From NCBI RefSeq assembly GCF_964204645.1, contig NC_134026.1, positions 1,821,950-1,885,949 on the forward strand: a stretch of DNA of 64,000 bases, given 5' to 3'. Numbering within the stretch: the first letter of the stretch is position 1; each line of letters begins with the position of its first letter. The notes beneath the pieces are model-generated. The model did no database searches. It saw only the letters and a program-made list of their open reading frames with translations, and was not told the origin of the DNA. Source of the DNA: Tubulanus polymorphus. Taxonomy: Eukaryota; Animalia; Nemertea. Both the position numbers and the translations under genes were made by a program. Of the stretch, positions 35,258-63,924 are shown in pieces.

Positions 35258-36031
35258 ATAGCATTATATATATATATCATTATACATGTATGAAATCTGA
35301 ATCGTACTATAATATAGCGATTGATGAAAATTATACAAGATGACTATGTCCAATGTCCTTACAGAGAAATAAATCTCTCATTGCTGCTTGATCAAATTTA
35401 TGATAACGAATAACTGTAATACATAATATGATTAGGTAGACAAGAACAAGTAAGACAAATCATTTTTTGCTTTCTCGTATCAAAATTTCTCCGTAATAGG
35501 ACAAACTTCTGTGGTAAGATCGAGCAGATCTTTAACCATACCGACTGAAATTTTGGCCAACGCTTCTCTCAGACCGACTTACAGGCTGGAAGCATTTTCG
35601 CCCTAATAAATAACACAATTGAAATAAGACAAAGTTCATGATTTAAAATTGAATATTGACAAGTAAGTTAAATTTACATACAACATAAAATTATGTTTTC
35701 AGAAAATAATATATTTCCCTTATATATACAACTATAGAGGCAAGATAATATACAACTATATATAATCCGTTATCCATATCAATTCGTTACGCACGTTTAT
35801 AAAAAAGACCATATACATCGGATCCTTATTTCACATGCTTGAAACCTATCTCTCCCCGCGCGTCCATTAAAACATTGACCTATGTCGTCCACGTGTCCAT
35901 GGTTAATGCTAAGAGTTAATCATATATAAATACGCCCTCAAATGAAGCTTGAATTGATCATAATTCTAAAATGCTACATTGGAAAAGTACAGCAGCTCTG
36001 AATAGAATAGGCTTTTTTTCTATCTGATTAG

Positions 36032-39000
36032 TTATTCATTGTCTTCTTCAGCTTTATCCTTTTTATTTTTCTCCGCAAGTTCCTTCCATTTCTTCAGATT
36101 GGCCCTATAAAACCAAACGGGAATGATACACATGAGGTACGAACTCAGAATTAGCTCTTTTCTCGATGCTGATCCGTATTACTTACGTAGCGCCATCAAC
36201 CATTGGTTGTGTACCGGGTAAAACTGCCGCCAGAAGCTCATAACATGGCAAACATATCCCCACTATGAATCCGACCTGGAACAAAGTAATACATGATACA
36301 AAATACATGATAACACATGGAATACACCGTTATTGAATTATGCAATAGAACTTCATTACAATGAAATACATTGGACCAGTATGAGTATAATGATATGCTC
36401 CTTTTATGAGAACTTGTTAAAAGTACCTGTGATTCGGGTAATTCGTGTGCGTAAGTACGATCCATCATACGTATTGGCTGTTGTCCTGCCTTCTTTTCCT
36501 CGTCACCCTGTAATCGAATCAGTTCAAATGTACAATTATCGTTAACGACTCGTATATCATTATCATTTCGTCGGTACGATCAGAAGCGAAGACTGTAATC
36601 ATGAATCACAATCAGACGAGTGACTATCGTTAAACTTCTTATATGTTAATACTAATCGCTCACGTGACGAAAACAGTGTTCCAATTTAAAATCACACCCA
36701 CGATGTTGAATCGCGGTTACTAAATAGATACAACTTAACTTAAAAAAACAGATCGAAAAACCATGCAAAGGGTGAATATATTTACAGAAAAACAAAAATG
36801 TGCATAGTGCAAATAAATTAATAGATGACGGATACTTTTTGGAAAGAATAGTTGTGTAAAACACCAGAATATAATGGAATGGAGGGCAATCAAATAGGCT
36901 TTAAACAACAGTGGGTGAATACAACAACATGAAAGAAAGTTTTGGCAATGATACTAAAATTGAAGGAACACTAACTAATTTCACCTAAATCAGAGAAAAT
37001 TGGAGTGTCCTCTACAAACGAATAGAAAACTAATGAAATAATAAAAAAGTTGTAATTGATAAGTATTAAAAATCTGCAAACATGTCTGTCAGTAGGTCAG
37101 CAAATAGTCCACATGTTATTTTGCTATGGCAATACGGTTTACCTGTTGCCAAAATTCTTCCATAATTATGTGTACAACATCTTTCTGCATTTTCCAGGGT
37201 TTATACATAGAACAAAGATCGGCAGCGGTCATGCATAGTTCCATGAGTAGATGTCTAGAAAACAACAATGATAGTCCAGAGATGCATGCGACATTACGCC
37301 ATCCTATACAACCCACCGGTGATAGAGAGGGAGTTTAGAGTTTTTGATTGTTACTGAAGCTGTAGACAAACGGAATTAGGAGACAACGACACAATTCAAG
37401 ATAGACATTTTACATAGATTTAGATTTAGATGATGACGTAGGATCGAATTTTCTGTAACCGATGTAAAAAGCTTCCTCGAACGACATCATTGAGACGATT
37501 AATTTATCAAAGCAACATAGACACAAAACACCTTTTTGATTAGTAATATCGTACAACGTATATATCTGTAAATTCTATCTACCGAGAATTCGACGAATTG
37601 AAATGTACTTTTTCAGACTTTCTCTTATTTCACGGTTAAATGATTTACAATGATATATACAAGACATAGTGGTCAGGAGAGAGGTACAGAAAGGTTTCCA
37701 GTTAGCGATGCATGCGGTGGTATAGCAGAAGGGATTAATCGTAATAAGCAAACTATGCATAAAAAGCGGCAACACCTTCGACGAGATGAGTTATACCTGT
37801 GCATAGAACTCCTCAAAGATTACTTTAACTGTCTCAACCTGAACATCCCAGGGTTTCACGCTGGCGCATAGATCACACGCGGTCATCGCAATGGCTTCCA
37901 GTAGTTTTCTGAGCATAAAGCATCGCAGGGTCATGTATATAGGGAGGAAAGGTTTTCAGGGGGTCAAATAATCCTCGATAATCGATTATGAACACAGAAA
38001 TATAGCTAAAGACTTTGTGGTATGTTGCCAAAAACAGAATAAGTATAGTATAATGCGAACGATTAGAAAATCTGTCCTGAAAATTTGAACATTTTTGTAC
38101 AGTAGTTATGTTAACAAATTAATGATGCAATTATTTAGATGTTAAATTATCAAACTGGTTATCTTAATAATTTACGTATCGGTATTTCACTATTAGAAAC
38201 GAAAGGCAGTTATTTGACGGTTAAATATAGGAATGACAACTTCACTTTTAAGAAAAGACCCATGCATTCTTCAGTTGTGTTATTTCATCTAATTAGCAAA
38301 AGGTAATTTTCTATTGAAGGGCACCGACTGTGTCTAAGAGGATATCACATGCATTTTATAAGAAATTATCTTTTTAACATATACTAGACAATCATTTAGA
38401 ATTTTATTTTTCAAAATGATTTAACTTCCTTGTAATACATGTATTCTTATCGTATTTTATATAATTCAATAAATTCACAGACAATCAGGGATTTTTTTTC
38501 TTAAGTTTACCTGTGCTCTACCTCTTCCCATGAGAAATCAGTTTTATCAATCATTTCTCGTAATTTAGCGCGGTTGCTGAAAAACAGTGCCAAATCCGTA
38601 GCCAGAATGCAGTGCTTGATATCGGACAGCACCTGAACAGACAATCAGAACAATATTATAGAATTATCAATTCTTTTCTGTCTGTTCATCAGTCAGAGGA
38701 ATCAATGAATTATTTTACCTGTTTATATTCGTCTGATGTGAGATGTTTGAATATGTTGTGTCCGTCGTGCTGAAAACGTGAAAGAAAACTTACATCAATG
38801 AGAAAACAAAACTATATTCATAAATTTGAAAAGTAACTTAATGTCGAACGTTCAAAAATCGGCTGAATTTGATTGGTAATAAGAAAAGCGATACTAACTT
38901 AAAAATTTCGAGAAATAAAGATTAATGTGCTTTGCGTAAAAACGAAATGATATTCATAAAAGTATTTGACTATTACAGCGTCAGGCGGCGCACTTAAAAA

Positions 39001-42000
39001 AAAATGGAAAATGGCGATGAAATTTGTTTGTGGGAAAAATCAAATCTTTGAAATTAACATCGCAATTTTCATAAACAGAATTAGAATATACAACTGGAAA
39101 TGAAAAGCAATTGGTAATAATCCCATAACGACAAGACTTCATCTTCATTTTAGTGTCAAAGCAATTCTTGTCAACGATTCCGTCATCGGAATCAGGATTT
39201 ATTTTATCCACCCACGCAGACGTGATTTGCGTGATCTCAACCTATATGGTTATCGAGAGGCAGGTGTCGAAATTCAGTACGCCCGATGAGGGCTCAAATA
39301 CACATTTACTTAAGAACTTTATACACTTTTGGTTGAATTATTGTGGGATTTCATTCGAAATTCTAACGTATTTCAGAGAGAAGATGGAGGTGTTTGAAAA
39401 TGAAAAAAAAATCATAAAATAAACGTGCGGTGTCGTAAATGAAACTGAATATATTTCCCACATAATAATAAACTGGGAAGTGATCGTAACATTACAAAAA
39501 TCTATCTTACTTGTAATATGTTAACAGTATAGTTAAAATGGTGATTCTCCATGGGAGAGGAGGAATATATAGCGGCTAGGGGAGACGCACTTTTCACTAT
39601 AAATGCATTACTTCTCCCACGATGGTCGACATCATGACATAGGCATGCAATAAAGAACGCTATTTGCTGAAATAAGTTAGAATGACAAAGTGGTACAAGA
39701 GTGATATTACATACTATATTGTTGTTAGTGGAGTAGGGGGGTAGAAGGGCGTGGTGGTCTGTATCGGTGGATCTCAGGGGTGATGGTGCGCCGCCAGACA
39801 TATTCCCAGCAAAAAGACATCAAAAATAGATATTTTGATATCCGTATACCAGCTAGTTATTCGTGGGTTGTTGACTGACTACCTGTAGAATAGTGACAGT
39901 TTGGTTGAAATGATGATGTTCCATGGTCGAAGTAGAATAAATTGCGGCGAGAGGAGAGGCACTTTTCACCATGAACGCATTTGTCTTTCCTCTATGGTCA
40001 AGGTCATGGCAAAGACATGCAACAAATAATGCTAGGCACTGCAAGATAATTAGATTAACCATCAAACAACGTTAACGTCCACCAACTTTGAATAAAAGAA
40101 CTATTTCTTTACGCAATGCTCTCGATCATCGAGAAACCTATCTGAAAAAAAACATCATCGAAAAAGAATCAATTTCCTTTTGACCTTTGCGACCGATAAA
40201 AACGCGATCATTTTCACGATGGAAATTTCCTGTACGTACAGACTTCTTTTCACTGACATGTTTACCCTTAATGACGTCACGGAGCAGCTACCCATTCAGT
40301 GGACTCGTGTATAATGTAGAACTAAGAATGAATTTCTATGAAATGAAGTCGTTCGTATGAAATACTCGATAGTTCGTGGTTCTCGTGTTTTCCATATCGG
40401 TTTTCGATAGCGAATACGATACGAACGCAGTGTTTGACCGTTAATTCGTGACAATTCCGAGAACCTTCGGATATTTACGTTAAAAATGAACGAAGTAACG
40501 CGCACGTACCTCTAATGGAGTAAATAAATTTGTCGTTGTTTTGATAACGGTATACATGGCATGCGCCACCGAGAAAGCATGCGCCCAATTATGATAGGGT
40601 ACATTCCGATAGTTCTTCCGTACTGTAAGTGTGAACTTCATCAAACATTCCTTGTCGAATCTACGAGAAAGATTTAGAGTAATCAATGAAACTGGTATCC
40701 GTGAAAACGTCAGTTTTAGTTCCAACGTGAAAATTTCTTATTCCATGCAAAATTCCACGTAACTGCAAAATAATATCATCAAGTAAAACAAGATTATATT
40801 TTCTTTCCGAACGAATTCAGTTGACTTAAGATGGGAATATTTCTTATCGAAATATCGATAGCACTGAAAATCATAACCCTTAATTTATCTTTCATGCTTT
40901 TTATACGAACAGATTAATGGTGCGTAAAACGTATTAAGACTCAGTGAAAACACAGGAAAACTCGACACGATCTGAGACTAATATTTAACATCGAACTATT
41001 TCGAATAAACAATCGTTCACTACAAGAATGTGTCTGAAAATGCGCATATGTATATAATTTTTTGTTGTATTTCAGTTTGAAAAAAATCACAGCAAAAAAA
41101 CAAGAAATCAAAACCGATACCATATGATGATATACGTATATATAAATGTGTCAAAGAATATATCATGAACTCTACGGAAGGATCGAGGTTAGGTTGAAAT
41201 TCAACGAGTCGATAAAGTTGAAATCTACTATAAATGTTAGGTGTGGACTGCATTTATCTCATCAAACCATTGAGATATAGGATTATGCTCTGGATTTCTC
41301 GAAGGACGAATTGAAAATCTTCATCTTCGTCATAGAATGATAGAAAGAAAATCAGAATTAGAAATACCTCCACCGAAATTAATTGTGAAATAAATGTTAG
41401 ACGATTGGTAAAATTTCTGAACAATTGGATGACATACTGAGATGTATATACATACAATCCCCTAGATTTGTACGAACTACACGCATCGCTCTTCCTATTT
41501 TATCAAATAGAATAATTCGATTCAGGTTTCTCCAAATCACTAAAATCTATATCTACAAGCAACAGATAAAAAAAACGCCGGGAAAATATTTGAAAGAAAA
41601 AAACCTCAGCCACCGTGTTATGAGAAATACTGTTAGCAGTCGACACAGAACTAAAGTAACCTCACCTCTTGTCAATAGGGAGCGATTCAAATTGCTCCGC
41701 TCTTCGTTTTGAAGCACTTAGAATGAAATAAAAACGGTCATGAGAATCGATGTAAATCCCGAATAAAGAAATGCTCGAGAGCCCGAAATAAATCACATAG
41801 AAAAATATTCAACAAAACATTAGGCAGAAGAGAACGTTCATAAAATGTGTATCTTTTTTAGATATGATATGATATCCTACAATGAAATGAGAAAGAAGCA
41901 GTCCACACCTCTGGCTTTCTAGAAATAAATTTCGGATAATCATTATAAAAAGGTTAAGATGATATAGAAAGTCCGGTGTATATAAGGCTATATACCTTGT

Positions 42001-60862: not shown

Positions 60863-62199
60863 ATCGTATTGTTTTTTCTTAGATTTACAATTTTTCGGTC
60901 TCAAGTATGAGAATTGTATATAACAACAATTTGAGATGATTATTTAATCCTTTCCTGGGTGGTTTTGATATTTCCATTGCAACCATCTGAAAAGATTTTA
61001 AAGGTTGGCTAAAAGCGAGCGTTTCTACGGAACTTATTTTTTAAGTAAGTTTGTTACGTGTGCTTGGTGTATTCTAAGAACCATTATGCACATTGTTTTG
61101 TACAAAATCTTTGCAAGTAAATTAAAGTCTTATATCCCCTGTCTGTAAGTGGATTTTACACGGGTGCTTACGCGTAATCAAGGAACTTTAAGTTTCTGTA
61201 TATTAACGTATTTGCGTCACAGAACTCACAACGACACGGGGATATTTCTATTTTGAGAAACACGGCAACTCTATCATTTGCTTTCGTCGCAAACACGTCA
61301 TCGGCTACTCAGCGTGATTAACCGATAAGGCGAAAGGAGCTCTAACGCCAAAAGCTTTCTATTCGGGTTCTATTCGAAACGAACATTAACGCAATGCAAT
61401 ATAGTATATCATATAATGACACATATTCAGTAAATTCTCTTACCTGTCGTTGTAAAACCAGTAACGCGCCAACAACCGAACCGAATTCATATATGACAGT
61501 ACAGGCACATGGCAACTCTGTGGCGTCAGAGTGTTTATGTTAGCGTTGATTCGCTGACCGGTTTCCCGCGACTTTCTATTCAACCGTCGCCTCCGCGAAT
61601 CCAATAATCGAATCGAACGAATCAATCACCCCCGACTACAGCCAATGATCATCACAACACAACCAAAGGCGCTTTTGTTTTTCATTTTACAGCGGCTGCT
61701 TGGTGATAATCGAAATCACCTGCAAGTCTTCCATCCCCACTTGGCGCGCTTTTGTCCTGCGAAAACAGCGTCATTATTGAAAAATAAAACAAAACAAATT
61801 ATTCTAATCTAAATAAAACCTTGTTAGAATCCGTTCAGATGAAATTTTGCAAATTCCATAAAGGCCACTGTGGCTGCTTCTTGGGGAATATCAGCCTTAT
61901 GAAGAAAGTGAGTTAAATGCGTTTTTCTTAAATTCGTATAAGCGAATCGGGCCTTGTGATCATTAATGCATTTATAATAAGCGAGGTGGCGTCTTGTGCA
62001 TGCACGATTTCTGAACATGAGCGAACCTTAAATCAACAAAAACCAGTACGCACACCAATTGTGATTAATAAAGGCCAAGTGGGACAACATATTTATTCTA
62101 CCCAAAACAGGTTGGGTGGTTATAAGTGTTAAATGTATAAATAGAGAAGTGAATATGAAATACGGTATCAGTATATATGTGCCATTATAAATTTGGAAT

Positions 62200-63924
62200 A
62201 TGGCGCAGAAATCAGAAAATTCGCCGACGCTGCTGTGGCTTGGATCTTCGGTTTATTTGAAGGATTATAGAGCTAATTACAACACTCCGAATATCGTTAA
62301 AGTTACGAAAGGCGAATATCTTCATTTGGGAACAAAGGATGAAGCCAATTCGTCGAACCCGAACAGACAAGATGAAGCTTATCTTCACAAGGTGCAGAGA
62401 ATATCGAAAGTGTTGGCGGTTAATATGAAACATAGTCACGACGCGATGAAGATAGTGCAAACTAACCAGAAATTAGCGATACCGGTATCTTATCGAGGTT
62501 GGTTCGAAGCTCTTTCCGAAGAAGGACGACAAATTCGACCTATCAGATCAATTACTGAACTAATTCGAGTCTCGCCTCATACATGTCTCGTCCGCGAAGA
62601 TATCCGCGGTTATACTTGTAAGGATAACGGTGAAATATCGTTGGATCATTATCGCATCGTGAAAGCAGGTGAAACTCTGACTCTGTTCGGAGTGATAAAC
62701 GCGACAGCAAATAAACAAAAGCAAACGACACAAATTCGTTTTTTGCGCTGCTTGGACGAAAATGGACAAACTGTTCAGTTCAGTGCCGAACAAAAGGGTA
62801 CGTTTAGTCCAGTGGCCGCTCGTAATATAAGCGGTGTACATAATATCAAGAGTATCATATCGAACTTTCGTTTGCCCGTGACTGTGCATTTGGCGTACGG
62901 GCCTCGTCCCCGAACTGGTGATAAAATCAAATTCAGCGGTATTGTGCGTTTATTGTATGTTTATGATGAAGAAATTGCGTTCACGTGTTCATTAACGGGC
63001 AATGAAAGAATGCTGCCGATTCCGACTCACGTACCCTTGAAGATTTTGCCGTCTGCAAATTTCGAAGAGATCAAGAATTCGCCCGAAATGAGACAGGTGA
63101 ATACGAGATGCGGTAAAATGGCCCAAAGTTACTTGAACAGCATTCATGTTTTGTACGACGTAGCTGTTGATTTGCCCGAAGAGGCCCCAAAACAGAATCA
63201 TCCCGCAATCCGACAACCACAGAGTCCACAGCCTCCCGAACCAGAAATCCCGGATAAAGTTACTCAACTGCCTAAAGACGAAGAAGACCAACTTTTCGAC
63301 GAGGTTGAAGATATCTATCTGTACGTAGTGCGTTACGGTATCAAACCACCCGAAGGCCTCGTTAAGAGACATAACTGGTCTGAACATGACAATTGGGAAG
63401 AGCCTATTTATCAAACGCTTCATAAAAAACCAAAAAACAAAGACAAAGACCAACCGCAAAAACTACAAAAATCTATGGAATCTGGAGGACATAACAAGGT
63501 CTTTCGTTTTCATCGACCGAAACAGGATACTGCAGAACCTGTCTGTACAGTAATACACATGAGTAAAGAAGAGAAATTCGATCAGGTTGATTCATTAGGT
63601 GATATACCATTAATGATACCTCAACAACCACCACCATTACCGGCTCGAAAATACGAACGATCGCACAGTGTCGGAGATATCGTCGAACCTTCACCACTCG
63701 ACCGTAAACAAAAGCCAAACGCGGATGTTTCTAGGCGCAAATCCAACCCTGCCATCTTCCGTATATTCGGAGCGAAAAAGAAAACGAAATTGAAAACTAT
63801 AAAAGCGTCCTCGCATGATAGCAGTGACGGCAGTAGTAGCCCTCAGAGTCCGGGTGGTTCAGGAGACAGCGATGAGAAGGTTCAAAAGGTCCGCAGAAAC
63901 AGTAGAGTGAATATGTACTTATAG
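62200..63924 (+). CDS. Intronless 574-aa CABIT-domain adaptor protein (GAREM/THEMIS-like)
   Basis: N-terminal beta-rich region with VKVTKGEY, LAIPVSYRGWFE, GETLTL, FLRCLD...GTFSP and FRLPVTV, resembling the CABIT pattern. Disordered tail with Tyr motifs (EDIYLYV, EPIYQTL) and PPPLPARK. Recognised from memory, no HMM run. Confidence 0.7.
   Translation: MAQKSENSPTLLWLGSSVYLKDYRANYNTPNIVKVTKGEYLHLGTKDEANSSNPNRQDEAYLHKVQRISKVLAVNMKHSHDAMKIVQTNQKLAIPVSYRGWFEALSEEGRQIRPIRSITELIRVSPHTCLVREDIRGYTCKDNGEISLDHYRIVKAGETLTLFGVINATANKQKQTTQIRFLRCLDENGQTVQFSAEQKGTFSPVAARNISGVHNIKSIISNFRLPVTVHLAYGPRPRTGDKIKFSGIVRLLYVYDEEIAFTCSLTGNERMLPIPTHVPLKILPSANFEEIKNSPEMRQVNTRCGKMAQSYLNSIHVLYDVAVDLPEEAPKQNHPAIRQPQSPQPPEPEIPDKVTQLPKDEEDQLFDEVEDIYLYVVRYGIKPPEGLVKRHNWSEHDNWEEPIYQTLHKKPKNKDKDQPQKLQKSMESGGHNKVFRFHRPKQDTAEPVCTVIHMSKEEKFDQVDSLGDIPLMIPQQPPPLPARKYERSHSVGDIVEPSPLDRKQKPNADVSRRKSNPAIFRIFGAKKKTKLKTIKASSHDSSDGSSSPQSPGGSGDSDEKVQKVRRNSRVNMYL

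Follow-up and report, generated by a model that had tools for sequence, protein, structure and literature searches.

Homologous alternative exons encode two versions of a predicted pocket segment in a PDE10-type phosphodiesterase gene of the nemertean Tubulanus polymorphus

The window analyzed in this report is a stretch of 64,000 nucleotides from the nemertean Tubulanus polymorphus (assembly GCF_964204645.1, contig NC_134026.1, positions 1,821,950 to 1,885,949). Most of what follows concerns a gene on its minus strand that encodes a phosphodiesterase (PDE) with paired GAF domains. Elsewhere, a long open frame at 62191-63921 on the plus strand carries a CABIT domain (Pfam E 3e-32) and is Themis/GAREM-like. 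On the minus strand, an open frame of 1563 codons, with ankyrin-repeat exons (Pfam Ank) after it, occupies approximately 25922-19150 and resembles a KANK-family gene, and exons with RWD-like and RING/IBR-like cysteine patterns at approximately 15800-13570 form a gene that we take to resemble an RBR E3 ligase such as RNF14. The features of the phosphodiesterase gene are as follows.

60742-36035, minus strand: GAF-GAF-PDEase gene, coding span of isoform X1 (tblastn of P0063; two Pfam GAF domains plus PDEase_I)
48948-48898, 48289-48239, and 47574-47524, minus strand: three homologous 51-nt exons at the end of GAF-A, one or two of them used in RefSeq models
45881-45739, minus strand: GAF-B exon copy H1, 143 nt, in isoforms X2 and X10
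44737-44595, minus strand: GAF-B exon copy H2, 143 nt, in 11 of 13 isoforms
40038-39883, minus strand: exon C1, 156 nt, His-Asp metal motif and H-loop, in 13 of 13 RefSeq isoforms and in sequencing run X2
39666-39511, minus strand: exon C2, intact unannotated duplicate of C1, AG..GT, strong splice sites
38632-38511, minus strand: upstream constitutive exon, 122 nt, phase-2 end
37908-37797, minus strand: exon A, 112 nt, AG acceptor and GT donor, used by RefSeq isoform X3 (P0057)
37254-37143, minus strand: exon B, 112 nt, AG acceptor and GT donor, in 12 of 13 RefSeq isoforms
37203-37201, minus strand: premature stop of the A+B splice, predicted from the spliced frame
36507-36427, minus strand: downstream exon, 81 nt, M-loop and invariant Gln, one copy in the window

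Exon B is 100% identical to the "pde-5" isoforms of T. polymorphus in RefSeq, including isoform X4. Two GAF domains in tandem lie N-terminal to a catalytic domain that Pfam recognizes as PDEase_I with 272 bits, and alignments with PDE5 and PDE10A show that the His-Asp metal motif, the second Asp, the invariant Gln, and the clamp Phe are all present. Against a set of chains without PDE11, the catalytic domain scored 273 bits with PDE10A, 217 with PDE5, and 195 with PDE2. Judged by its sequence, the gene is a PDE10-type class I GAF-PDE. The full-length predicted structure of isoform A has a pLDDT of 68 and a pTM of 0.44, and it superposes on PDE10A chains with a target TM-score of ~0.89; this model confirms the fold only. 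Enzymes of the PDE10 family hydrolyze both cAMP and cGMP, and their GAF-B domain binds cAMP. Nematode pde-5 is a PDE10 orthologue, and according to a 2025 review the substrate specificity of C. elegans PDE-5 had not been measured (PMC12346295, PMC8802716).

Exons A and B are alternative versions of one 37-residue segment of this phosphodiesterase, comprising the metal-binding Asp, a loop, and the start of helix 14, and equivalent to residues 753-789 of PDE5 in the alignment. Each is entered in phase 2, after the exon at 38632-38511, and left in phase 0, before the exon at 36507-36427, and the reading frame stays open through both upstream-A-downstream and upstream-B-downstream. Neither exon is a chance reading: apart from their use in RefSeq isoforms, the two peptides each match PDE5/6/10 chains (best E values of 1e-4 for A and 1e-5 for B). 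They are identical at 18 of 37 residues (61 of 112 nt), leaving 19 residues that differ, with a pN of 0.39 and a pS of 0.73, at which synonymous sites are near saturation. A profile built from both exon types found exactly two copies, A and B, and no third pocket exon within the window, where no second copy of the downstream exon was found either. The original prediction had described A and B as alternative homologous exons, and their equal length and phase and their valid splice sites bear this out; both quoted peptides lie on the minus strand. It had also held that inclusion of both 112-nt exons would shift the frame, as indeed it does: translation of the A+B splice gives 17 foreign residues and then the stop at 37203-37201, which lies 58 nt upstream of the junction of B with the downstream exon. 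If both exons are skipped, translation likewise ends early.

Models that contain A only and models that contain B only are both found in RefSeq for 7 of 10 named nemertean and bivalve species (up to 15 members of each cluster considered), namely T. polymorphus, L. longissimus, M. mercenaria, C. virginica, M. gigas, C. angulata, and S. echinata. Among the models listed, O. edulis (B in 15 of 15), S. cucullata, and R. philippinarum have B only. B-type segments also occur in proteins of annelids (Ridgeia, Dimorphilus), a gastropod (Nucella), and a flatworm (Taenia). A metagenome scan with B patterns returned 15 loci, 10 of which show A followed by B; all 20 exons of these 10 loci are 112 nt long with AG..GT boundaries, and they make up 7 distinct pairs. 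Of the other five, L002, L003, and L005 hold too little upstream DNA to reveal A, L008 has B only and is either intronless or spliced, and L015 is an unrelated chance match. The top multi-stretch matches of a representative search (P0176, P0218, P0230) proved to be unrelated repeats. In one lineage (P0177/P0233/P0001), two pocket exons of greater divergence lie close together.

In a tree of 45 distinct exon peptides, which is unrooted and built on 37 columns, all 19 B rows fall on one side of a 100/100 branch, and the A rows group with the corresponding exon from crustaceans, from insects, and from one nematode. The exon A of the window is 89% identical to a Penaeus exon, and the named ecdysozoan proteins examined, which were found with an A query, are all A-type. 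Vertebrate PDE10A mixes A-like and B-like residues in the alignment. pN was below pS in 28 of 28 pairs for exon A (mean, 0.26 versus 0.73) and likewise in 28 of 28 for exon B (mean, 0.20 versus 0.73), the pairs not being independent of one another. Both exons are thus under purifying selection, and the A/B pair is an old tandem duplicate, deeply conserved in spiralian PDE10.

Besides A and B, the gene has three more duplicated exon sets: the 51-nt GAF-A, the 143-nt GAF-B, and the 156-nt H-loop exons. C1 and C2 are identical at 39 of 52 residues, with a saturated pS of 0.78 and a pN of 0.14. C2 appears in none of the 13 RefSeq models and in no joint of run X2, which does not show that it is silent. 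Near-length relatives of C2 were sought and none was found; locus L010 has two C exons, neither of them closer to C2 than to C1 (identities 43/33 and 39/31). Most RefSeq models use a donor 3 nt beyond C1 (39883-39880, minus strand), which adds a Val, and the run X2 joint after C1 fits the form without it (isoform X4). One O. edulis model skips the His-Asp/H-loop exon entirely, and a Nucella model (P0203) has two GAF-B copies in tandem. The exon after B, which is single and carries Gln in the window, is duplicated in Lineus, in oysters, and in L003, and one of the copies in oysters and in L003 carries Glu in place of the invariant Gln. The alternative copies lie at 557-637 and 1245-1325 of L003 and are represented by oyster proteins P0012 and P0116. 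Glu is present at this position in all Mercenaria, Ostrea, and Saccostrea models listed, and a Periplaneta model (P0040) has two copies of the exon, both with Gln.

A published table lists 15 positions associated with PDE specificity (PMC5617230 S4 Fig). The A/B exon supplies seven of those tabulated positions, and three of the seven differ between A and B, in agreement with the earlier claim that this segment contributes pocket residues; the roles given here come from alignment to PDE5/PDE10A and from the table, rather than from contacts measured on the model. In PDE5A1 numbering taken from the alignment, A has Ala767, Ser768, Gln775, Val779, Ile782, Phe783, and Phe786, and B has Ser767, Met768, Gln775, Val779, Ile782, Met783, and Phe786. 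The differences are therefore Ala/Ser at 767, Ser/Met at 768, and Phe/Met at 783. Asp764, Gln775, Val779, Ile782, Phe786, and the invariant Gln are identical in the two forms, so that the metal-binding Asp and the clamp Ile and Phe are kept in both, as had been noted at the outset. The motifs quoted then for PDE4, PDE5, and PDE10 also agree with our PDE5 and PDE10A alignments and with the table. As to the differences themselves, those at Asp+3 and at Phe/Met had been recognized, and the most consistent one, Ser/Met at Asp+4, had been overlooked.

Across relatives, column 767 (Asp+3) is Ala in 11 of 11 paired A exons and, among 19 B exons, Ser in 15 and Ala in 4. At column 768 (Asp+4), 10 of the 11 paired A exons have Ser and all 19 B exons have Met; at column 783, 10 of the 11 A exons have Phe and all 19 B exons have Met; and column 787 is Tyr in A and Trp in B throughout. 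The B rows were collected with B-motif patterns, and their invariance at 768, 783, and 787 is partly ascertainment. These three are the class-fixed columns, and 768 and 783 are specificity columns. The Dimorphilus B copy (P0234) has Asn, the PDE4-type residue, at Asp+3.

The Asn-Pro pair of the cAMP-specific PDE4, PDE7, and PDE8 is absent from both window copies, where A has Ala-Ser and B has Ser-Met, and the supporting Asp of the cAMP triad (Asn321/Pro322/Asp167) is replaced by Ser604 in the common part of the protein. B shares Ile-Met-x-x-Phe with PDE4, but the Asn-Pro-Tyr-Thr set of PDE4 is found in neither copy, nor is the Ile-Ala-Val-Ala set of PDE5. Of the PDE5/6 set Ala767, Gln775, and Ala779, A shares Ala and Gln and B shares Gln only, with Val779 in both. 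Gln775, present in both copies, serves to orient the invariant Gln. Within the published table, Gln775 is confined to PDE5/PDE6, and Met783 is listed for PDE4 and also for the dual-specificity PDE1 and the cGMP-specific DdPDE3 (PMC5617230). In a hand count over the 15 columns, A matches PDE6 at 9 and PDE4 at 8, and B matches PDE4 at 9 and PDE6 at 8.

Choice of A or B would yield two enzymes that are 19 residues apart, three of these residues being at purine-pocket positions: judged by alignment with PDE5 and PDE10A, the residues that face the pocket would be Ala767-Ser768-Phe783 in A and Ser767-Met768-Met783 in B. Since Asp764, Gln775, Val779, Ile782, Phe786, and the invariant Gln are common to the two, both are predicted to be dual-substrate or cGMP-leaning. 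In PDE9, mutation of the invariant Gln or its partner shifts kcat/Km and inhibitor IC50, and the preference for cGMP stays (PMC3069055). Taken with the pocket comparisons above, this makes tuning likelier than a switch. The reading that we prefer, with a probability of roughly 0.6, is that the swap would change Km, kcat, and inhibitor sensitivity without reversing the cAMP/cGMP preference.

The original prediction went further and proposed a splice-controlled substrate switch, with A preferring cGMP and B preferring cAMP. The 15-column count leans in that direction, but by a margin of one residue. Differences in pocket columns have been kept across phyla, the Dimorphilus B copy has its Asn at Asp+3, and the rules of PDE specificity are themselves unsettled (PMC3069055, PMC12982385). 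Against a switch, equivalents of Asn321, Pro322, and Asp167 are absent from both window copies, and the PDE5/6-type Gln775 is present in both. Nor do the two proposed markers discriminate: Ala at Asp+3 occurs in the 4 B exons mentioned above and Asn in neither window copy, and the Met of IMEEF, taken to be PDE4-like, is equally a residue of dual and cGMP-specific enzymes. The switch is thus unsupported by the signature residues, and we regard it as rather improbable.

Somewhat less probable still is that the exon swap acts mainly on regulation, through GAF-to-catalytic coupling, stability, or contacts in the dimer or with partners, in the manner of PKM1/PKM2, with substrate handling little changed. 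The seven specificity columns account for three of the 19 differences; among the other 16, several are class-specific (756, 769, 778, and 787). The gene also swaps its GAF and H-loop exons, and homologous alternative exons mostly alter surface residues (PMC7954323). Against this reading, 768 and 783, two of the three columns fixed most strictly by class, belong to the pocket.

The T. polymorphus RefSeq models include A in 1 of 13 (X3), B in 12 of 13, and both in none, counts that are not usage frequencies. We also considered four public sequencing runs over 35500-41500; all four were produced by one study, and their records do not describe them as RNA. Only run X2 has spliced joints, nine of them with GT..AG ends. 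Among these nine, contig depth, a poor measure of expression, is 71.5 for upstream-B, 27.2 for upstream-A, 27.2 for A-B, and 110.2 for B-downstream; the equal depth of the upstream-A and A-B joints suggests one contig running upstream-A-B. Both exons are thus spliced in, A being seen in this run only where it is joined to B. B is the main productive form in this single spliced run. No A-to-downstream joint is listed in the four runs over this interval, in which contigs drop rare forms, and evidence for A-only transcripts is thus confined to the RefSeq models; A-only use is likely restricted by tissue or stage. Model X13 of C. virginica can be read as A joined to B in the shifted frame. Strict exclusion of the two exons had been assumed, but the A-B joint of run X2, with its GT..AG ends, contradicts it: exclusion is leaky, and it is only in the full-length protein that A and B exclude each other. 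In the intron after B, an alternative acceptor (37011-36988, minus strand) leads to the truncated window model X13, and one run X2 contig starts exactly at 37011.

Familiar mechanisms of exclusion find little footing here. The A-B intron is 542 nt long in the window and 425 to 2168 nt in relatives, with ordinary GT..AG ends; the window intron is too long for steric exclusion of A+B, and its ends speak against a U12 mechanism. Pairing between introns in the window was not above that of shuffled sequences in an ungapped test, in which 13, 26, and 33 of 40 shuffles scored as high; among 15 tests, the best values were 1 of 40 (L010) and 2 of 40 (L011). A repeat search for the docking-site model gave nothing, with no intron sequence in common. 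The spliceosome does not keep A and B strictly apart, and the output of single-copy protein is probably ensured at a step later than splicing, through the frameshift and its premature stop. The A+B product is a predicted target of nonsense-mediated decay (NMD) or else would yield a truncated protein that lacks the invariant Gln and the clamp Phe. Because A+B ends in a premature stop, inclusion of A in cells that use B would also lower the enzyme dose. This NMD geometry is not uniform: read in the shifted frame, exon B lacks a stop in 3 of the 7 loci of relatives.

These observations could be taken to mean that exon A is mainly a poison cassette that sets enzyme level through the A+B frameshift, with negligible A-only protein. 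Such a role would account for a run that joins A to B with no A-downstream joint listed, for the A+B model in C. virginica, and for the presence of B in every O. edulis model listed. The constraint on A is at the protein level, however, and pN below pS in every pair indicates that A is kept as protein, beyond a mere cassette; its 89% identity to the Penaeus exon and the A-only models in seven species point the same way, and we consider this explanation quite improbable. An assembly artefact or a dead duplicate can be dismissed, given that an independent contig (sequencing run X1) spans the stretch unbroken with no substitution listed in A or B, and that A precedes B in 10 other loci with frames and splice sites intact.

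If the exon were instead to reset the cAMP-to-cGMP preference by at least 10-fold, then, together with the H-loop duplicate and the mollusc Gln-to-Glu exon, one spiralian PDE10 gene would provide several specificities by splicing, with A+B as an off switch; we think this unlikely. The basis on which PDEs discriminate between cAMP and cGMP is still disputed (PMC3069055, PMC12982385). A and B amount to a naturally occurring pair of enzymes, conserved over a long time, that differ at 19 residues only, three of them in the pocket; the pair is directly assayable, as is the further natural swap of Gln to Glu at the invariant position in oysters. PDE inhibitors used in work on molluscs, annelids, and flatworms may hit the isoforms unequally. 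Both isoforms are already in RefSeq, as unremarked models.

Vertebrate PDE10A and C. elegans PDE-5 have the GAF-GAF-PDEase architecture of the window gene, but the pocket exon is present in two copies in the window gene, whereas C. elegans pde-5 is listed with one isoform. The pocket Thr/Ala/Tyr of vertebrate PDE10A corresponds to Gln/Val/Phe-or-Met in the window enzyme, and the Gly before its invariant Gln corresponds to Ser. Tyr693, part of the PDE10A selectivity pocket (PMC12982385), is Phe in A or Met in B. Without the PDE10A Tyr and Gly in the window pocket, vertebrate PDE10 pharmacology should not be assumed.

Splicing of PDE genes is generally known for changes at the N terminus, which makes exon swaps inside the catalytic pocket unusual. 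In CYP4F3A/B and ketohexokinase A/C, both vertebrate, a homologous alternative exon alters substrate handling; that effect was shown biochemically, whereas the effect of A and B is predicted only. It is established that alternative exons of common origin can alter residues close to functional sites (Lam et al. 2021, PMC7954323). PDEs are mentioned neither in the text of that survey nor in six of its supplements, and no description of the A/B pair was found in the literature searched, which did not extend to subscription journals or the MXE-MOD web list. As in PKM1/PKM2 and the cases described in the survey (PMC7954323), A and B are tandem duplicated exons of equal length and phase that keep the fold and place their variable residues near the functional site. 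They differ from PKM1/PKM2-type exons in that they carry a metal ligand together with phosphodiesterase purine-pocket residues and in that double inclusion is seen.
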